From Octopus vulgaris (Eukaryota): a DNA stretch of 64,000 nucleotides. The notes beneath the pieces are model-generated. The model was not told where the DNA came from. It did no database searches and worked only from the letters and a program-made list of their open reading frames with translations. A program made the translations under genes and the position numbers. The stretch lies in contig OX597825.1 of assembly GCA_951406725.2 (NCBI GenBank), positions 8,246,001 through 8,310,000 of the forward strand, given 5' to 3'. Of the stretch, positions 7,490 through 63,446 are shown in pieces; position 1 is the first letter of the stretch; each line of letters begins with the position of its first letter.

Positions 7490-8290
7490 ATACTCCGAGA
7501 TCCATGGACGAGTTCTGTCCAGCGGTCGCTGTCCTTTACGATCGCTGCCATGTCCTGTGCTCCCAGATACAGGAAGTCCTCAACCAAATCTAGTGGCTTC
7601 CTGTCTACATTCATAATTTGTTTTGGCTTCTTAACGTTCTCTACCAGACGTTTCATCTTAATTTCATTCATTTTCAACCTCACACTCATCGACACAGTCT
7701 GCCTCCCGCACTTTGTTTGTCACCAGAACTACGTCGTCAGCAGCTTCAGCATCTAATATCCTTTTAGACTTGATCCTCCTCCTCTGAGCTGGCGCTACAA
7801 GAAAGCCAGAGTCCTAGTGTTCCACCAACGCAAGAGGCATACAATACTCCACCACGATGATAAAAAAAAGGTAGGGAACCAAAGTATCTCCAGGATAATG
7901 AATGACCTCTGGTGTTGTGTCGAACAGTGATATCAGGTCCACTATCTTCTTGGGTAATCCATAAGACTTTAAGATCTTCATCAAACAGTGACGGTTTATA
8001 GGATCAAATGCCTTCCCAAAGTCAATGAAAACCACTAAAATATCATTCTTAGCATTAGGAGGTGACTGCTGGTTGATCCTCCTTCTCTGAAGCCGTTGTA
8101 CCTGAGGTTTTGTCCCAGAAACTGGTTGTCCCTGAGGTTTTCCATTTCCGGCTGAATCCTGCTAAGGGTCATGCTGCTGAGGGTTTTTCCATGAGTGACA
8201 TCAGTGGGATCCCTCTATAGTTGTTGGTGTTAGAGAGATCTCCCTTCTTTGGCGCTGGAACGATGCTACTGATGCTCCACTGATTCAGAG
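7490..8290 (-). mobile_element. RTE-type LINE reverse transcriptase fragment (decayed, internally deleted)
   Basis: Minus-strand motifs IVPAPKKGDLSNTNNYRGIPLM, VFIDFGKAFDPINR..L..ILKSYG.P, GDTLVPYLF and LDLVEDFLYLG are typical non-LTR RT motifs; frameshifts are present. Confidence 0.88.
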
Positions 8291-9075: not shown

Positions 9076-9643
9076 GGTCTTTGTTCGTTTTGCTCGATAT
9101 TATCGAAATAAATAAATAAGTAAATAAATAAATAAGTAAAATGGAAATCATTGTCAAATTCTTCTAGAGAATGACCCAGTGTGATTATTGCTTGTTTTCA
9201 TTATGTCCTGGAAATGAACCCGCAGCTTTAACAATATATATTGAAGCCACATTTTGTAAATGCATCATCTGTTATGTGAACAACTCTCTCGTGTTAAAAC
9301 ATTGAATTTCAGACTTGTTTAGTTTGTATATATCATGACAAACTTTTACGAACCTCTTTTGCGTTCTTTCCTGTCATATAAAACACTCAAGATGTCACAC
9401 GTTGGTAATTTGAATATAAAAAACAGATTCAGAAAAGAGAAAAAAAAAAAAATATATATATATATATAGAATGATTTCATTTGCGTGAAACACGGAAAAA
9501 AATTTCTGAAGAAACTACATTGAAAATAAAACAGTTGCCAGTGGATAATAATATTGGTTATATCTATAGAACGTGCAAGAGTGACGGTTTTCAAAATATG
9601 ATTGAGCGTCGGACAAACAATTTGCATTATTTCTTCCGGGATA

Positions 9644-9920
9644 AGGCGAGAGAGTGGCAGAATCTTCCTCACGCTGAGCAAAACACTTAGCGTCTGTCTT
9701 TAGATTCTGGGTTCAAATTCTCCTGAGGCGGATTTTTTGCCTTCTCATCCAACCGAGGTCGATTCAATAAGTACCAGTTATACACTGGAGTCGATGTCAT
9801 CGACAAAATCTCCCCCCCCCCATATTTTTGTGCCTATAATAGAAACAATTATTTCTTTTGTTATAAGGCTGCGAGCTGGCAGAATAGTTAGCATGCCAAA
9901 CAAAAAATTAACAGAAATCT
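9644..9920 (+). mobile_element. Group B SINE (9644-9850) plus a second head fragment (about 9866-9920)
   Basis: GGCGAGAGAGTGGCAGAATC...GGGTTCAAATTC...GCCTTCTCATCC...GGTCGA..AATAAGTACCAG; second head GGCTGCGAGCTGGCAGAATAGTTAGC. Confidence 0.65.
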
Positions 9921-11650: not shown

Positions 11651-11746
11651 ACTTTTTTTTTTTTTTTTCTTAAACCTTCAAAAGAAAAGCTCTACCTTGT
11701 AAATTGTTCTATCTGTGTGCAGCCCTGTGTGGCTAATAAAGAAACA

Positions 11747-16396: not shown

Positions 16397-16980
16397 ATAT
16401 TAGGGAGTGAATTTAATTTAATATATAAATATATAGTGAATTTATAATAAAGGAGAACAGAGATATATATGAAGTTTTATTCAGCAGTTAAATACTTCTT
16501 TTCTATAACTACACACGTTTCTGCAGCAACTATTGCACACTGCAAAATTTATTTGTATATTTAAGTGTACTTATTGTTAATTGTTTTCAGGATGGTGTCA
16601 ACTGGATTGATCCGATAGAACCTAAATTAAATACAAGTCGAGCAGAAATGCACGTGGTGCTGTCATTGTTCCAAAAATAGCACCAACGGATCTTAACATT
16701 TTCAACTCCGCTGGTTTCAAACAAGCTGACTAGAGGTCCAAAGAATTTTAATAGTCTGCAGCCACAGACCATCCTGAAAGGTCGAGTAGTAGTATTAATG
16801 ATTACTATCAGGTTAAAGTAGGTATGTTTATAACCGTCAAAAACGACTACGGCACTCACTTCGATTCTGTATCCCTACCATTCAATATGTGTGTGTGTGT
16901 GTGTGTGTGTGCGTGTTTTCGTGCGGGCGTGTGTGTATGTGTGTTGATATAAATAAATATATATTCACATAAATGTATAT

Positions 16981-17211
16981 ATTTCTTTATTGCCCACAAG
17001 GGGCTAAACACAAAGGGGACAAACAAGGACAGGCAAACGGATAAAGTCGATTACATCGACCCCAGTGCGAAACTGGTACTTTATTTATCGACCCCGAAAG
17101 GATGAAATGCAAAGTCGACCTCGGCGGAATTTGAACTCAGAACGTAACGGGAGACGAAATACCGCTAAGCATTTCATCCGGCGCGCTAACGTGTCTGCCA
17201 GCTCGCCGCCT
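16981..17211 (-). mobile_element. Full-length group B tRNA-derived SINE with 17-bp TSD
   Basis: Minus strand GGCGGCGAGCTGGCAGA...GAGTTCAAATTCCGCCGAGGTCGACTTTGC...GGGGTCGATAAATAAAGTACCAG...AATAAAGAAAT; TATATTCACATAAATGT at 16960-16976 and 17212-17228. Confidence 0.92.
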
Positions 17212-17800
17212 TATATTCACATAAATGTCTACAAAAGTAACATTAGACTTTCTTGTAAAAACAAAATTTTGACAAATACTAACATATTTGATGTTTCAGG
17301 CTGGACAACTTTATGAAGTATACAGTATTACACTTACGCATGCATGCATGCATGTATATGTGTGTCTATGCTTGCATGTTCATATCCATTTATTTCTGTA
17401 TGTATGTATGTTTGTATGCCTTAATTCGTTTATAATATGTATTCTTGCTGTTTGAAACAAGTAGATTTCTAACATAGAGACAAAGCTGTATCTCGAAAAA
17501 TTTAGATACCAAGTAAAAGGCAACATTTTAGAAAATTCTAGAATGTATTTACGCACATCTAGTGTTTCATTTACATTTTGTAATCTATAAATTCTATTTT
17601 ATTCCGTCGCATAATTTGCCTGGAATCTTCATCGTTTCAAGATAATCACTAAGACTTAAATATCCTAATTAAATGAAGTAAGCTACGATACGCCGACACA
17701 ATTATACAACCTCTGAACGTAAGATACATTCTGCGCTTTGAAATATTTTAGCGACAGTATTCTCTCTTCTGTTGACTTTAAATTACATGTTCACAAGTAA

Positions 17801-24939: not shown

Positions 24940-26298
24940 CTCGCCACTTCATTCGACGTTGATATCCCCTCACCACTATCCACACCGCCCTTCCCAGAGC
25001 ACGTTCCGTGGATCGTGCATATGCTATCTCTTCCTGCACCCATCTCACCGTCTCTCTGTTTTCCTTCACATCCCACCCCACCACCCCACCTCTTCAACAC
25101 ACCATTCTCTGGGCCTCCCGGCGACTCCAGTTCGACCTTTCAACTTCACCCATCTTCCCTAACCGACCTCTCCCCTCCTTCAAACGAGCCCACAACATCC
25201 GAGACCTCTTGGTCCACAATTTCTTCTCTAACCTAACGTCCCAACCCGGCTCGTTCCCTTGGCCTCGCTCACGCTGCTGCACTTGCTCTTACCACCCTTC
25301 TCACCGGCACCATCATCGACCCTATCACATCACCGACTCCTTCACCTGCACTTCTACCAATGTAATCTACTGTATTTCCTGCTCTCCCTGCCCTTCTCTA
25401 TACAACGGGCAAACGGGACGCCGCTTGGCCGACCGGCTCGTGGAACGCCTCCGGGGCATCTGACTCGGCAATTACACCCCGGTCTCGCGCCATTTCTACT
25501 CTACCGGTCATTCTTGCAACAACTGCCTTTGTTAGGATTGTCTTTGAGCAGGGGCCTTCCGGACTCCCGTTTGCAACGTGAACATGGATTAATCTCTCTT
25601 CGCTCCTTTGCGCTACATGGGTTTAACCCTCCTCCCATGTTCATCTAACCTCTTCCCCTCTTCATCTAACCTCCTCCCCTCTCATCTCTCCCACCCACCT
25701 TTCTTCAATTGCTCCGACTCCTACTTCGTGTCTTCACTCCTACTCTCCTTTTCCCTTCTTTTTACTCCTACCCACTTTCTCGCTTCCCCCTTCATCGTCA
25801 CCCTTCCCTCGAAACTCCACCCCACCCCTATGCAATCTAACCGCAACTTTCCTATCCATCCCATCACACCACACCACACACCACTACACCATACACCACC
25901 ATACCACACAACACATCACATCACACCAGCACTGACCACTTCCCAGCCCCACATCTACATACCTACACATCCGCACATGCACACGTCAAGGTCACCAGAG
26001 CTCTTCCACACGCACATACATACTCTCTTGTACACACGCACGCGCACCTTCGTTTTGAGATCACCACTACTTTATTAACTCCCTTTCTTCGTAGCTCTCC
26101 TGTGTGACGCGTCATGATAGATCACTAGCCACTACACATTCTTTATGTTCTCTCCTTGTTTCTTTCTGTGTTCTTTTCTGTCGAAGAGTGTAGGCTCCGA
26201 ACGTTAAAGACTTTTTCACTTCCCGAGCGTTAAACTAATACATCTGTTTGTTGTCTACACCACCTGTCTTCGTATTTTGTTTTGTTGTGCATTCTCCC

Positions 26299-29592: not shown

Positions 29593-30399
29593 TGTATGTA
29601 TGTATAAATAGATAGATAGATACATAGTTGTATGTATGTATAGGGTATCGGATGTTCATGTGCATTTGCGTATGCATATGTGTGTATATTTGTACAAATG
29701 GACATATAATCAATATTAATAATTTATTGCTGTATACAATAAGATGCCTGATGGATGAGGATGAATATAACTAATCTACCGCCAAAGAAAATGTTTGCCT
29801 GTGACAGTGAATCAATAGGCAAGGATTGGTCCATTAGTGCAGGTGATAGATAAATCAATATAAACCGTGTAGTTCACCGTGTCCCTTACAGGCTTTTTGC
29901 AGACCATCATCTATATTTTATACAATAAACCTAATGTACATGAACCACTGTCTTTTATCATGCCTATTATTATGCACATTGACTTTGTAGCGCCTACTAT
30001 GAGCGGAAAGAAGTTGAATAATTGAAGCATTTTATTTCCCTTACGTCATATTTCGGCTTGGAAAATGCTCGATCAATTCAACGTACCATATCTTTCCTTT
30101 GTTCCGAATTTGGCGCTGCAGCTAAATAGTAAATCGTGTTTATATTCTTTTTTTTCTTCTCCATACCAGAACGGGAGAAGTTTCTGTACTTAGAGTTTTG
30201 TGACTTATAGACACTTTGGTCCAATTTTCAGGTTTTCTGGTTAGCCTAATTTCAGAGGATGAGTATCCATCCCTCATTATTAGTACTATTAGAGTAATAT
30301 ATTATCAGATAGCAATAGCCTTAATTGAAGAATCCACAAAAACACAGTTGAGAAATAGAAAACAAACTCAAATTTTCTACTAACATATTTCAATATTCT

Positions 30400-30615
30400 A
30401 AGGTGACGAGCTTGTAGAATCGTTTGCACGCCAGACGATATGCTACTAAGAATTTCGTCCGTCACCATATTCTGATTTCAAATACCGCCGGGGTCGAATC
30501 TGTCTTTGATCTTTTCGGGGTCCGATAGAATGAACACCAGTTGGACACCGAGGATCAATGTAATGGACTTAGCCCCTGCCTCCAAACTGCTGGCCTTGTG
30601 CTAAAATTTGAAATC
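30400..30615 (+). mobile_element. Group B SINE with 14-bp TSD
   Basis: AGGTGACGAGCTTGTAGAATCG...CCGCCGGGGTCGA...GCTGGCCTTGTGCTAAAATTTGAAA; ATATTTCAATATTC at 30385-30398 and 30619-30632. Confidence 0.8.
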
Positions 30616-30718
30616 GATATATTTCAATATTCAGCTATGAAAAATCCTTCGTTGTTGTGAATATGCCAGAAATATCGCTTAAGGGTAACTTGATACAAAA
30701 ATCCAAGCATGCATCAGT

Positions 30719-40556: not shown

Positions 40557-41177
40557 ATGTATCTATGTATGTATTATCTCTTCCTCTATGTGTTATTATG
40601 ACTAAATGGGAGAGTATTCAGCAAATGCTTGAGGTGTTTCAAACAACTTTTAGTCTGAACGACTGGACAATGCAGTAATGTCTTTGAATCTCGGAGCCAG
40701 GGGAATTGGCAGAGTTCTGAGATCGGTGATTTTTAATGGATGCAGCAACGTAAAAATGATGGCCGTATTGCAATATCATCTTTCGTGAGAGAGATGTCCG
40801 TAAAAAAAAAACAAAGAAAAATGTGAGTGGGAGTGTCATGGATTATTTACCATTTAATAATAAATATAGATAAAATGAATTGTGATTCATATTGCAAAAC
40901 AAAATATTACATATCTAAGCGATTTCATTAGACATAACATAGAAAGCAAAGGATTTGTTATTTATATTAAGGAATGATGTATCTTCATTTTTGATCAATT
41001 ATTTTCGACATTTGATCAATAATTACGCCATAAAAAATGGCGTAACAAGGTCTCGTGTTACACCAGCACTGTATTGTACATATTATTATTAATATATAGG
41101 ATTTTATTTGAAAGAAAGATGATCATTTTATTTCGGAGGTGTAAAAGCCATTGCACAAATTAAACGTACATGTAATG

Positions 41178-41590
41178 CAGCGAGTTGGCAGAATCGTTAG
41201 CAAGCGGGGCAAAAGGCTTGGCGTCATTTCGCCTGAGGTGCACTTTGTCTTTCATCATTTTGGGGTCGATGAAATAACTACCAGTGGATTTGCTCCCACC
41301 TACCAAATTTCAGTCCTTGTACTTATAGCAAAAAACATTAATTAAACGTACAAGTAAGGTGACGAGCTGGAAGAATCGTAAGCACGCTGGGCGAAATGCC
41401 TAGCAGTCTTTCGTCCGTCTTCAAGTTCTGAGTTCAAATTTCGCCCAGGCCGGCTACGCCTTTCATTCTTTCGGGTGGGTAAAAGAAGCACCAGTGAAAC
41501 TGTGGTGTCGATGTAATCGGGGACATGCCATCCCGCCCACCCCACTCCCCCAAAAATTCAGGCCTCTTGCCTTTTGTACAAAAGATTTAT
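41178..41590 (+). mobile_element. Two adjacent group B SINE copies (about 41178-41335 with deletions; 41357-41590)
   Basis: GCGAGTTGGCAGAATCGTTAGC and GGTGACGAGCTGGAAGAATCG heads, GAGTTCAAATT B box, GCCTTTCATTCTTTCGGG body. Confidence 0.75.
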
Positions 41591-47955: not shown

Positions 47956-48366
47956 TTACTCTTGTACTCTTTTACTTGTTTCAGTCATTTGACTGCGGCC
48001 ATGCTGGAGCACCGCCTTTAGTCGAGCAAATCGACCCCGGGACTTATTCTTTGTAAGCCCAGTACTTATTCTATCGGTCTCTTTTGCCGAACCGCTAAGT
48101 AACGGGGACATAAACACACCAGCATCGGTTGAGAAGCAATGCTAGGGGGACAAACAGACACACAAACATACACACACACACTTATATATATATACATATA
48201 TACAACAGGCTTCTTTCAGTTTCCGTCTCCCAAATCCACTCACAAGGCATTGGTCGGCCCGGGGCTATAGCAGAAGACACTTGCCCAAGATGCCACGGAG
48301 TGGGACTGAACCCGGAACCATGTGGTTTGTTAGCAAGCTACTTACCACACAGCCACTCCTGCGCCT
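47956..48366 (-). mobile_element. Full-length group A tRNA-derived SINE
   Basis: Near-identical reverse complement of 57159-57574; A and B boxes, CTTGGGCAAGTGTCTT (CORE-like), internal microsatellite, (GTAAAAGA)n tail. Confidence 0.93.
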
Positions 48367-48719
48367 ATGTATCTATGTACGCATTTATGTATCTATGTAC
48401 GCATATTTGCTGCAAAATAGATTGGTTCATATTTTTATTATTTCAATCCAGCTAAAAGCGTCGCACAAAAAGATTCGTTAGCAGGTTTGATGAAAATAAT
48501 TAAAGAATAATAAACTAGGCATTTTTTGTCTCCCTATACGTCCTGTGTTCGAAATCTTCAGCGGTTGCATTGCTATTTATCGTTTCAGCTCGGTAAAAAT
48601 ACGTACAGTATGAACATCAGGTTGATGCATCGAGTCCCGACTCGTCCGAAATTGCTGGAGTTGCGCCAATATACATATTTTTGCCGTGTTATTTATACAT
48701 ATTATTAAAATACACATAC

Positions 48720-50178: not shown

Positions 50179-51382
50179 ATAAACACATATATGCATGCAT
50201 ATATATTATATGTGTGTGTATTCAAACGTATCACATTTATTAAAAACATAAGGAAAATGTATTAGAAACACAGCCAAAAGACATGTAAGACAGAAAGAGC
50301 ACTAAATGACTATTTTTCACTTAAATACTAAAAGTGGTTGTATTAGTGGGAGAGATATGTGAGGACAATATGTATGTATATTTACAACAATTCTACTGTA
50401 CATCCATAAATACATACACAAACGCACAAGGCGTATATACAGATTCACCAACAAATACTTCCTCAACCATGTGTTTATGATGGTCTTATTGCTCTACAAA
50501 GGAAAATTAGTTTTGAACTATTCAATCAAAATTTCCAATCATTTATTCCAATTATTGCTAACAATTTATGATTTAAATGTGTTGCTAAATGCGATTATAG
50601 GAATATTGCCTTTTAAGTGTTGTTTTCATGGATCAGTTGAACGAATGAAATTTCAACCTTATTAATCTAAACGTATATGAAATATATATACACAATATAC
50701 ATACGTATATACCAATATATCTATATAGTCATATATATATAAACTATATACATGTATATACATAAACATACGTGTGTGGCCCCCACATACACAAACGGAC
50801 ACATATCTGATATTTGGGTTTGTGTCACTATTTACGAATATATCGTAAATTTCCACACATGGAGGCAGACTTTATATGATATTGATTTCTTTTCTGTTCT
50901 GTTTTTTTTTTTATCTTTTCTGTCTTTTCTGTTCTAACTTTTCTTTTCTGTATTTTTTTTTCTACGTGATATTCCCGCTAATTCTTTGAAATATAAATAT
51001 AGTGATATATATTTTTGATAGTGCATTGTATCGCTAAAATTTCAAGAGATTCATTCGTGCTTCTAAGCTAGAACGGTACATCTTCAGATTTGTTATACGC
51101 AGTTGGGTAATCTTAGAAGTTTGCGGAACAGTATATTTTGTTACAGCACAATATTATGTAAATTGTAAATTAAACAATGGGAAATAGCAGTATTTCGACT
51201 GCATTTCTAAATATTATTGGGAGAAGAGCTTTTTACTCAAAGCTATATATTCTTTCATTCAGAAAAGTATATGACGTAACATGCCACTTCATTTTAATTC
51301 AAAGTCTAGTTTGCTTCATATGTACACACATACACTGATACATAGATATACACATACATTCATACATGCGTACACTCACCCC

Positions 51383-51475
<93 letters not shown>

Positions 51476-51476
51476 A

Positions 51477-51897
51477 GACGCAGGAGTGGCTGTGTGGTAA
51501 GTAGCTTGTTTACCAACCACATGGTTCCGGGTTCAGTCCCACTGTGTGGCACCTTGGGCAAGTGTCTTCTACTATAGCCTCGGGCCGACCAAAGCCTTGT
51601 GAGTGGATTTGGTAGAAGGAAACTGAAAGAAGCCCGTCGTATATATGTATATATATATATATGTGTGCGTGTGTGTTTGTGTGTCTGTGTTTGTCCCCCT
51701 AGCATTGCTTGACAACCGATGCCGGTGTGTTTATGTCCCCGTTACTTAGCGGTTCGGCAAAAGAGACCGATAGAATAAGTACTGGGCTTACAAAAGAATA
51801 AGTCCCGGGGTCGAGTTGCTCGATTAAAGGCGGTGCTCCAGCATGGCCCTCAGCCAAATGACTGAAACAAGTAAAAGAGTAAAAGAGTAAAGAGAGT
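51477..51897 (+). mobile_element. Full-length group A tRNA-derived SINE
   Basis: GCAGGAGTGGCTGTGTGGTAAG (A box), GGTTCAGTCCC (B box), tail GGCGGTGCTCCAGCATGGCC...GAAACAAGTAAAAGAG. Confidence 0.93.
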
Positions 51898-55600: not shown

Positions 55601-57158
55601 CAAGAGCGAGACGAATAGACCTATGACCTCTCTGCAGCAAGCATCTACTGGCTATTGTACCCCGTTTAAATATGACCTGAACTCCGCTTAACTCCTTATC
55701 CTCTGGTAATTAATATCTTAATTCAAATTGTCGAATCCATAACAATGACTGGCAAATCCTTTTATGAATTTCTCACTTAAAGCTTTCGTTCTTTGCATTA
55801 AATAGTAAAGTAGTACAAATAATCCGTAAATACCCGTGTATATTGGACAGCGGAAATGATATTTCCGCAGCGGAAATGATATTTATAATGAGATTTATGT
55901 TTAAGCCAACTTAAACCTAATGCAATTTAATGCAAGTCAGTCTCCTTTAAATTCTTTGACAATCGCAAATCCTTCCCCACCTTTCTCCCAATGGACAACG
56001 ATACAGGTACTTCACTTCTGTTTTAATTCTCCTTTCGCCTCATAAATTTTCATACGAGAGTTTCCTATTTCTTCTTAGTATCACATAATGTGATAAATAT
56101 TAGGAAATACTATTATAACTGGTAAGTGATAAATACGAAACATATTATAGTGATATAAATAAAAAGAAAATATCAGTTATCTCCTTGAAAGATAGCGAGA
56201 ACTATATAATAATTGTATGCAAAGCATCCTCAAGACACGGTCATCTATGTTTAATATATTTCCTGACGAAACTAAGGAGCCAATGATAAAAAGAAATGTA
56301 GTTCTCGTGCGACAGTGTAAGAACCAACTGTAAAGACTGGATGTTTTTTTTGAGACAGATTTCCACCACAAACACCTTCCCAGCTGATGCAATTAAAAGC
56401 AAGAAATGATGCGAGGATATGTAAAAAAAAAACATCCTGAGAAAAGCAGAATAGACAACATAGCTTTATATAGATGGCATTCTTCTTTGTGAAAGATCAG
56501 TTGATCCACTTTGCTCTTTCTTCTTATCTTTGTATTTATAAACTATTTTCGATTCATCTTCATCCCGATATTATATGTTTGTTTATTGGGGAAATCAGAG
56601 TTGTTGGGGGAATCAGAGTCCATTGACATTTATAAATGAAAATGAAAACATGACTTTGCTGTAGTTTTGATTTTGTCTTCTTTTTGTTGGCGGTTTGTAA
56701 ATATGGCTGTACTTCTTACTGGTGTACTTTGTATTTTAATGTTGTGATTTATTCTCCCGGAAAACAGAACATCACCACGCAATTACTTATGCCACTGAAA
56801 TACCTCAAATTTTTCCGACTGACATACTCCGATACTATGAAAATCTAAATCTGAAATTTATAAATGTTATATTCAACACCACTTTGTAGCCGGAGAATCT
56901 CTATTCAAATCGAAAGCAATTTCCGTAAGAATGAGATCGAAATTCTACTAATAGCTTCTTACTCAAATGTACTAACATGTATAGAACGTTGAGCTTTTAT
57001 TTTTTATAATTAATACTAACATCCAGTGTGTCTTTGCGCCTAAATACACTAGATCAGTATTTGGTGGAAACTAGTTATTATTTACAGCCAAATGTGTTCT
57101 TTTTAATCTTTTCGTTATCGCTAAACACTGCCATCTTACATTCTTTTATTTTGGTGAT

Positions 57159-57574
57159 AGGCGCAGGAGTGGCTGTCTGGTAAATAGCTTGTTTACCAAC
57201 CACATGGTTCCAGGTTCAGGCCCACTGCGTTGCACCTTGGGCAAGTGTCTTATACTATAGCCTCGGGCCGACCAAAGCTTTGTGAGGGGATTTGGTAGAC
57301 GGAAACTGAAAGAAACCCGTCGTATATATATGTATATGTGTGTGTGTGTGTGCGTGTATGTTTGTGTTTGTCCCCCTAGCATTGCTTGACAACTGATGCT
57401 GGTGTGTTTATGTCCCCGTCATTAGTGGTTCGGCAAAAGAGACCGATAGAATAAGTACTGGGCTTACAAAGAATAAGTCCCGGGGTCGAGTTGCTCGATT
57501 AAAGGCGGTGCTCCAGCATGGCCGCAGTCAAATGACTGAAACAAGTAAAAGAGTAAAAGAGAGAGTAAAGAGTA
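57159..57574 (+). mobile_element. Full-length group A tRNA-derived SINE
   Basis: Same structure as 51477-51897; possible TSD TGGTGATA at 57152-57159 and 57581-57588. Confidence 0.93.
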
Positions 57575-61554: not shown

Positions 61555-62121
61555 ATTATTATTATTATCAAAGCAGTTGTTAGGGATTTTATCATCATCA
61601 TCATCATTGGAGTTGCTCTTATTTTTTTTATCAACAAACGTTTCCTTTACAAGTCCGTATTATTCATAGCAACATATGTCCAGGGTATATGGGGTTAATC
61701 CGGTCCTCAAAAATGGATTGAGATGCAAGATTATATCGAAAACTGATTACAATAAACATATGCTAACAAATCGATTGAAACGTTTCTTATGTATTCATCG
61801 AACAAGTGGACCGTTTGTCATATTTTATTGCTGCCACTGATGTTTATACCGAATCGGCTCTTGAGTCAAGTAAAATTGGAACGTCAAAGGATTATCATCG
61901 TAGCCTTTCTATAATGAAGGTTTATAAGATTTTATGGGACTGTTAACTTAATTAAAACGTATTCCCCATTACTGCCGACGAAATACACTGCTCTGCACTG
62001 AAGCACAATCAAGAATTTCCCATTGATTTTCATATGGATTCCCAGCGAAAAGTGTACGCTTTTCTTCTCAGTCTAATCAATATCTGTTAGCTCCTTTGAA
62101 ATCGAATAATATTACAATACT

Positions 62122-63090
62122 TATTTCTTTATTACCCACAAGGGGCTAAACATAGAGGGGACAAACAAGGACAGACATAGGTATTACGTCGATTACATCG
62201 ACCCCAGTGCGTAACTGGTACTTAATTTATCGACTCCCGAAAGGATGAAAGGCAAAGTCGACCTCGGCGGAATTTGAACTCACAACGTAACGGCAGACGA
62301 AATACCTATTTATTTACTGACCACAAGGGGCTAAACACAGAGAGGACAAACAAGGACAGGCATAGGTATTACGTCGATTACATCGACCCCAGTGCGTAAC
62401 TGGTACTTAATTTATCGACCCCGAAAGGATGAAAGGCAAAGTCGACCTCGGCGGAATTTGATTTCGCAACGTAACGGCAGACGAAATACCAATTTCTTTA
62501 CTAACCACAAGGGGCTAAACACAGAGAGGACAAACAAGGACAGACGTAGGTATTACGTCGATTACATCGACCCCAGTGCGTAACTGGTACTTAATTTATC
62601 GACTCCGAAAGGATGAAAGGCAAAGTCGACCTCGGCGGAATTTGAACTCACAACGTAACGGCAGACGAAATACCTATTTATTTACTAACCACAAGGGGCT
62701 AAACATAGAGGGGACAAACAAGGACAGACATAGGTATTAAGTGGATTATATCGACCCCAGTGCGTAACTGGTACTTAATTTATCGACTCCGAAAGGATGA
62801 AAGGCAAAGTCGACCTCGGCGGAATTTGAACGCACAACGTAACGGCAGACGAAATACCTATTTCTTTACTAACCACAAGGGGCTAAACACAGAGGGGACA
62901 AACAAGGACAGGCAAATGGACTAAGTTGATTATATCGACCCCAGTGCGTAACTGGTACTTAATTTATCGACTCCCGAAAGGATGAAAGGCAAAGTCGACC
63001 TCGGCAGAATTTGAACTCAGAACGTAACTGCAGACGAAATACGGCTACGCATTTCGCCCGGCGTGTAAACGTTTCTGCCAGCTCGCCGCC
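62122..63090 (-). mobile_element. Group B SINE multimer: one head plus five tandem 184-185-bp body/tail units
   Basis: CCACAAGGGG recurs at 62136, 62321, 62505, 62689 and 62873; single head GGCGGCGAGCTGGCAG at 63090; ACAATACT at 62114-21 and 63095-102 (candidate TSD). Confidence 0.93.
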
Positions 63091-63446
63091 TTGCACAATA
63101 CTCTTATAGTGCCCCCCTACATCTGTACACTTTTCCGAACGCCCGATCTTTTCTGCGTCGGTAGTCCTGCATCGTAATTTATCGCCAGTGGCGTCGACTT
63201 AAAACTATTTAAGCGACATAAAAATTCGTGGCCGTCACTCGTTTGAAAGTGTCTGCGATAGCTATGAACACAATATCCCCCCCATCTATCTATCTGGCAG
63301 CCCTTTTCGTGTAATTAAACTGAGAAGTATGACTGGACATGGGAACGTTTCACTGGAACAATAAACTCTACACACAGATATTATATGTTACAGACTTCAG
63401 TCAATGATCAGCCATTTACACCGTAAGCACACGCGCACACACACGC

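Follow-up and report, generated by a model that had tools for sequence, protein, structure and literature searches.

A tandem SINE array in Octopus vulgaris whose middle units combine the body of one end unit with the tail of the other

The 64-kb stretch of Octopus vulgaris DNA analysed here (the window) contains on its minus strand a tandem array of a probably tRNA-type SINE, in which one headed unit is followed by four headless units of 184-185 bp. Two parental unit types are present, namely the first unit (U1) and the last (U5), and the three middle units (U2-U4) each consist of a U5-type body and a U1-type tail. The array is real and supports the view, already put forward in the first-pass annotation, of a SINE expanding into a satellite-like array; it likely works like a short SINE-derived satellite that unequal exchange has enlarged from a two-type founder. 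The full account that we prefer, to which we give slightly less than an even chance, is that a two-unit founder, likely inserted as one read-through RNA, was grown to five units by in-register unequal exchange.

Layout of the array and its setting

Positions in the SINE are numbered in the sense direction, which is the minus strand, +1 being the first G of GGCGG at 63090. In sense order, followed by the reference monomer, the features are:

63095..63102, minus strand: candidate target-site duplication, 5′ copy, reading AGTATTGT on the sense strand and separated by 4 nt from the initial G of the head
63044..63090, minus strand: head segment (+1 to +47), single copy, with an A-box-like motif, the 5′ arm and the apical loop inside
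62859..63043, minus strand: U1, body and tail of the headed unit, 185 bp, with a monomer-type body and a junction-type tail
62675..62858, minus strand: U2, headless, 184 bp, with a U5-type body, a U1-type patch (columns 111-120) and a U1-type tail
62491..62674, minus strand: U3, headless, 184 bp, U5-type to column 132 and U1-type from 154
62307..62490, minus strand: U4, headless, 184 bp, U5-type to column 129 and U1-type from 132
62122..62306, minus strand: U5, last headless unit, 185 bp, with a monomer-type tail that has AATAAA and a stronger tail hairpin
62114..62121, minus strand: 3′ copy of the candidate duplication, directly after the last tail
16980..17212, minus strand: full monomer of the same family, 231 nt, with a perfect 17-bp duplication (17212-17228 and 16960-16976)

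Unit alignment and TRF (period 184, 5.0 copies, 94% matches) both confirm the earlier description of one head and five units of 184-185 bp in minus-strand sense. The repeat unit covers 184 nt of the 231-nt SINE, a portion shorter than the element, and all five tails are full length, with two bases distinguishing tails 1-4 from the last. Each of the four junctions consists of a complete tail followed by SINE base +48, which lies 3′ of the A-box-like motif (+11 to +21, identified by eye against the consensus) and 5′ of a B-box-like motif that is damaged in U4. Re-entry after the A box, as first described, holds at a single base for all four junctions, although the position is +48 and not about 46. 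The longer terminal unit is U1 with its 47-nt head.

The 8-bp repeat brackets the whole array, as the first-pass annotation had suggested, and repeats of at least 8 bp were obtained in 35 of 20,000 random pairs from the window (chance ∼0.002). Duplication lengths differ between the 17-kb copy (17 bp), the 30-kb copy (14 bp) and the array (8 bp), and variable-length target-site duplications are a general feature of SINEs. A single duplication around the array is expected under both a local and an RNA-borne origin. Non-autonomous LTR elements with small-RNA heads, in the form treated in part of PMC10886601, were set aside, as the duplications here are 8-17 bp long and variable.

The window has a GC content of 35%, is rich in microsatellites and contains no N, and no long coding frame could be identified in it. 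A profile search detected related copies at 9.0, 9.6, 17, 22, 30, 41 and 48 kb, so that, with its 231-nt monomer, the family has the size (<1 kb) and interspersion by which SINEs are recognized in the defining passage of PMC3531059. The same passage asks for 60% or more identity to a tRNA across 60 nt; the tRNA likeness of the SINE consists of the A- and B-box-like motifs seen by eye, with no genes detected by the ARAGORN tRNA search and no Rfam matches, either on the window at the gathering threshold or on the array at E values up to 10. A BLAST search of phages and plasmids gave no match, and a scan of bacterial and archaeal genomes with a 21-nt core returned two loci, both dismissed as chance matches of 25-27 nt.

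Two of the related copies are themselves compound. At 41174-41580 (plus strand) two older relatives are arranged head to tail, with one 18-nt sequence (one mismatch) in front of both, which makes the pair one of the TSD-(SINE-TSD)n type; its first copy is without the B-box region. An old full copy at 9643-9904 (plus strand) is followed by a 40-nt head fragment, with the same 10-nt sequence before each. The copy at 30385-30632 (plus strand) belongs to an older subfamily with the same head and core and a different tail, and its perfect 14-bp duplication likewise begins with a TATTTC-containing sequence. A second dispersed repeat at 48114-48481, 51275-51741 and 57146-57418 gives rise to near-identical spurious open reading frames.

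No partner LINE was identified in the window. At 7814-8161 (minus strand) there is a reverse-transcriptase fragment, scoring weakly and under the curated cut-off against RVT_1 (E 0.001; one of seven window ORFs), and a 50-nt stretch at 11694-11744 (plus strand), located inside a (TATC)n array with unrelated sequence upstream, resembles the SINE tail only and may represent the 3′ terminus of the partner LINE or else of a different SINE. Open reading frame pieces at 24963-25648 (plus strand) resemble in their motif a putative Penelope-type GIY-YIG fragment; the piece tested against Pfam gave no match.

Two parental unit types and chimeric middle units

The units are 92% identical and differ from one another at 7-19 positions, nearly all of them substitutions, in an ordered pattern. 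Bases exclusive to the headless units U2-U5 are found at columns 24, 125 and 129 and are lacking in U1 and the monomer, in agreement with the diagnostic bases by which the first-pass annotation had separated the headless units from the head unit. Not listed there are derived bases that U1 has in common with headless units: a derived base at column 72 is common to U1, U2, U3 and U5, another at column 111 to U1 and U2, and U1 and U5 share a derived 1-bp insertion that is absent in five other window copies. At columns 172 and 175 the tails of U1-U4 have T and G, respectively, and that of U5 has G and A, like both of the monomer tails in the window. U1 and U5 are separated by 15 differences, compared with 16-20 to the 17-kb monomer, the range for independent copies, while private mutations in U1 to U5 (6, 2, 2, 3, and 0, respectively) are too few for dating anything.

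When the middle units were painted at the 15 sites at which U1 and U5 differ, each of U2-U4 was found to carry U5 alleles first and U1 alleles last. U3 has one switch, between columns 132 and 154 (permutation P 0.002), U4 has one at columns 129-132 (P 0.0007), and U2 has three (P 0.028); without the two tail sites the values for U3 and U4 are 0.08 and 0.013, and the units are not independent of one another. The middle units share variants present in neither end unit (columns 69, 149, and 180), and of 21 informative site pairs 14 do not fit a single tree, which together indicate repeated exchange. At columns 72 and 173 the alleles of U4 match other copies of the SINE family. Among U2-U5 there are three 2:2 splits at non-CpG sites, where 0.07-0.31 would be expected from units identical at insertion (P ≤0.002). 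This star-tree test is non-significant (P 0.22) when CpG sites are included at 10-fold CpG rates; the three observed splits are non-CpG, and the non-CpG version is the one relied upon.

Chimeras of a U5 body and a U1 tail are the pattern expected from misalignment, by one repeat, of a dimer composed of a full and a headless unit, in which the 5′ part of each new unit would come from the last unit, with tail and junction contributed by the first. That the middle units were made by misaligned exchange or slippage between units is accordingly the part of our account held with good confidence, and it may have taken place here or at a source locus. Local unequal crossover, which the first-pass annotation had named as an outcome speaking against its own reading, is thus what is encountered within this array; variability of the junction among arrays, named in the same way, is seen at low resolution in the protein matches considered below.

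The +48 junction and the origin of the proposed founder

Under the preferred reading of an RNA-borne two-unit founder, a full SINE copy would have become joined to a headless copy at a junction formed a single time in each lineage. The site would be a hot spot within the tRNA-like head, and the join would result either from insertion of one SINE into another at +48 or from reverse transcriptase that halts at the loop and resumes on the tail of a SINE. Pol III would read from the single A/B-box pair through the internal tail, a read-through suggested by the absence of any run of four T in the 971-nt array (the first lies 71 nt downstream), and the partner LINE would prime on the last tail and insert the RNA with one duplication, after or before which misaligned exchange or slippage between the units would supply the middle ones. 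Of the confidence placed in that exchange step, a little over half extends to an RNA-borne founder. The multimeric master proposed in the first-pass annotation is possible, and is the leading reading for the founder, with the exact junction in none of the 18 related proteins.

An RNA-borne founder is favored by the U1-U5 distance, which is close to that between independent copies, by the missing T run, by similar junctions elsewhere and by the weaker hairpins of the internal tails, predicted at -3.2 to -3.8 kcal/mol against -5.0 and -6.6 kcal/mol, the last tail being stronger than the internal ones. The third monomer tail (at 22 kb) is as weak as the internal tails (-3.4). AATAAA is absent from the tails of U1 and U3 and re-created in U2 and U4, so its loss is inconsistent across internal tails. 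Against an RNA-borne founder stand the lack of the +48 junction in the proteins, the derived insertion common to U1 and U5, which is most simply explained if both came from one monomer, and a match between the flank and the re-entry site that is the prediction of a purely local duplication. The 3′ flank of the array starts AGTATT and the re-entry site reads GGTATT in the same register after the tail, so that the GTATT of the 3′ duplication copy aligns with +49 to +53 in the register of the internal junctions.

Complementarity between the tail end and the re-entry point was originally read from the palindrome GAAATA-GG-TATTTC. This palindrome is perfect at one of the four junctions, the others reading TAAATA, GAAATT and TAAATA, and the central GG is not a spacer, being native to the SINE (+48/+49 of the 17-kb monomer). 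Of 190 possible re-entry sites, five, +48 included, have a 6-bp complement of the tail end no more than 4 nt away, an uncommon enough coincidence that the palindrome was flagged with reason. TATTTC is nevertheless the 3′ arm of the head's own stem-loop, the 5′ arm of which reads GAAATG, and in the predicted fold +48 is the first base of the 3′ arm, immediately after the four-base apical loop (+44 to +47). Folding of the head is predicted at -35 and -36.4 kcal/mol (z -3.0 and -2.5), with 1/200 shuffles equally good at -35 kcal/mol, and 5′ and 3′ ends pairing through GGCGG and CCGCC were seen by eye. In the full array RNA the predicted pair probability of the palindrome is at most 0.002 at all four junctions, and a GAAAT hairpin at the junction windows is outside the minimum-energy fold in three and a weak alternative in one. 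Pairing of the tail to +50 in monomer RNA is predicted at 0.000. The head's own arms are predicted to pair at 1.0 both in the array RNA and in U1, and at 0.28 in the 17-kb monomer. The predicted structures make it more likely that the loop, rather than the tail complement, marks +48.

Junctions elsewhere were sought through the single frame that is open across the junction, a protein search that yielded 1, 17, 6, and 4 matches, of which 19 are distinct; P0002, an unrelated repeat, was dropped, leaving 18. A second SINE pass is present in five of the 18 (0, 0, 0, 1, and 11 of 2,000 shuffles reaching the score), with re-entry at ∼+15 (P0010, P0017), +18 to +21 (P0016), ∼+50 (P0012) and +57 to +61 (P0015). 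These positions are taken from codon counts between mapped pieces of diverged proteins and are accurate to several bases. At least 13 of the 18 read through the +48 point into the native head. It is conceivable, though on balance unlikely, that a multimeric octopus SINE is in circulation, with units joined at fixed head-loop positions (near +15 and +48) and internal tails whose reverse-transcriptase recognition hairpin is weakened so that priming favors the last tail, whole arrays retrotransposing with duplications of their own. Tail-to-head SINE junctions may be common in public Octopus sequences, which serves as a lead only.

The protein matches also showed other features. P0012 and P0016 have a short duplicated tail tip (∼20-30 nt) beside a full tail, with weak scores, which suggests slippage at the 3′ end, and in P0001 the second dispersed repeat of the window sits after the SINE. 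Four named Octopus bimaculoides gene models contain absorbed pieces of this SINE. P0004, P0018, and P0019, all from O. bimaculoides, have antisense pieces as in-frame exons of gene models (aminopeptidase-like, kelch-like 10 and a PLAT-domain protein), reflecting either exonisation or annotation error.

A wholly local origin is the alternative with the greatest weight, a genuine possibility although one we hold well below even. A monomer would have been inserted, slippage or recombination between the GTATT of its own 3′ duplication and +49 to +53 would have produced a dimer, and unequal exchange would have expanded it, the multimer never having been mobile. The in-register 5-nt match on which this depends is available at only 1-2 of 186-187 possible re-entry sites, one of which is +48, and has a background chance of 0.009 (1143 of 127,980 window 10-mers). 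The insertion common to U1 and U5 and the location of two other tandem pairs in the window between duplication-like repeats point in the same direction, and unequal recombination is the route suggested for clam arrays in the corresponding section of PMC11481361. However, local origin predicts A at the first junction base, where all four junctions have G, the native SINE base; two further linked changes would be required in the tail of U1; and junctions at similar head positions in other sequences suggest hot spots that are independent of the flank. For an RNA-borne founder, on the other hand, the flank match would need a target preference, hinted at by YATT within the first 7 nt of four of five duplication-like sequences in the window (background 0.067), a motif picked post hoc after the sequences had been seen, with two of the five duplication calls uncertain. 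Such a preference would reconcile the two views, since insertion of a SINE into a SINE at +48 gives this junction and Pol III read-through would mobilise the resulting pair.

Hairpin-guided or repeated template jumping, in which reverse transcriptase at +48 jumps to the complementary tail once per unit, was one of two mechanisms offered in the first-pass annotation and appears improbable. The rarity of tail-end complements among re-entry sites is in its favor, as are the middle-unit alleles that match other family copies (U4, columns 72 and 173), which mixed RNA templates would produce. The predicted tail/re-entry pairing of 0.000-0.002 counts against it: in the array RNA the head arm pairs with these same bases at 1.0, and the complement of TATTTC is already available in the 5′ arm of the head. 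Moreover, jumping on one RNA would give identical units, jumps among a pool of monomers would not give four tails with two linked bases missing from monomer tails, and the variants at columns 69, 149, and 180 would require later DNA exchange in any event.

The other mechanism, rolling-circle reverse transcription of a circular 184-nt SINE RNA in the manner of a retrozyme, has very little left to recommend it beyond the uniform unit length and junction, the complete tail at every junction, and a unit size inside the 150-300 bp given for metazoan retrozymes in the consulted part of PMC7761336. One circle copied repeatedly would give identical units, the last tail included, a star-tree expectation rejected by the three non-CpG 2:2 splits; at columns 172 and 175 the bases of the last tail are not those of the four junction tails but those of 2/2 monomer tails; the middle units are chimeric with different switch points; and, the head being off the circle, two extra template switches would be needed. 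No Rfam match was found at E up to 10, and no CUGANGA hammerhead core on either strand of the four circularised units. An assembly artefact from duplicated reads of one SINE is scarcely credible, since, although tandem repeats are assembly-prone and a homopolymer-adjacent 1-bp indel varies among units, the ordered, nearly all substitutional differences at 7-19 positions and a window without N argue against it.

Relation to known SINE multimers and satellites

The tRNA-derived octopus SINEs that Ohshima and Okada reportedly described in 1994, named OK, OR1 and OR2, are of the tRNA type, as the array SINE, which has relatives in O. bimaculoides gene models, probably is too. The motifs of the array SINE had no match in two sets of supplementary files, of 8 and 2 files, that were searched for a family consensus or for the central domain of the Meta, CORE or Ceph superfamily, and a literature search for three window motifs found nothing. 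No array of this type came to light in the octopus papers searched, and octopus SINE arrays are absent from the portions covered of PMC13282606, PMC4758252, PMC4824008, PMC3531059, PMC5804259, PMC10886601, and PMC12988792. SINEs account for 11.6% of the O. vulgaris assembly according to PMC13282606.

Among molluscs, the TSD1-(SINE)n-TSD1 multimers of the blood clam Scapharca broughtonii, for which 4-15 units are given in the section describing them (Martelossi et al., 2024, PMC11481361), likewise have a full first head, a fixed head cut, a complete last tail and one duplication, and consist of a tRNA-type SINE, which the octopus element probably also is. The first and middle tails of the clam arrays are usually truncated according to that section, whereas every unit of the octopus array reaches the tail end, and the section contains no unit-level analysis of chimeras and gives no hot-spot position. 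The second clam arrangement described there, TSD1-(SINE-TSD1)n, resembles the pairs at 9.6 and 41 kb of the window (PMC11481361).

Also close are the squamate SINE-derived satellites sSat1-3 and especially gecko sSat3Gja1 and whiptail sSat3Ati2, which, in the account given in the part of Vassetzky et al. (2023, PMC10702118) consulted, share with the octopus array a unit made from the 3′ portion of a SINE and a longer terminal unit reaching the SINE end. Squamate units are 70-290 nt long, in some genomes different loci have units with identical limits, and long loci have a subtelomeric bias, as stated in the same part (PMC10702118). They differ in SINE family and phylum, and by the working cut-off of four middle monomers used there, the octopus array, with three, falls among the short loci. 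It is the one such array in the window, the protein matches having other junction positions. Dimeric and multimeric SINEs are known from Alu and from jerboa Dip, with multimers of up to eight (cited in a passage of PMC10702118; defined in PMC3531059, as far as its relevant passage goes). Alu and Dip multimers are composed of complete or nearly complete units, whereas four of the five octopus units are headless and mobility of the multimer is putative; both may be transcribed and inserted as one piece. Metazoan non-LTR retrozymes also have tandem units of 150-300 bp in animals, including a mollusc, but are defined by a hammerhead and a circular RNA, at least in the part of PMC7761336 concerned, whereas in the octopus array no hammerhead was found, the head is of Pol III type and the last tail is distinct.

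With this array, SINE tandem multimers, already described in squamates and bivalves, are also documented for an octopus SINE, and the growth of such an array can be followed base by base, from a likely two-type founder to chimeric middle units. How the same unit limits arise at many loci is the question left open in the literature. If the +48 junction and its linked tail bases were to recur between different duplications, octopus would provide a direct test of SINE satellites spreading as read-through RNAs.
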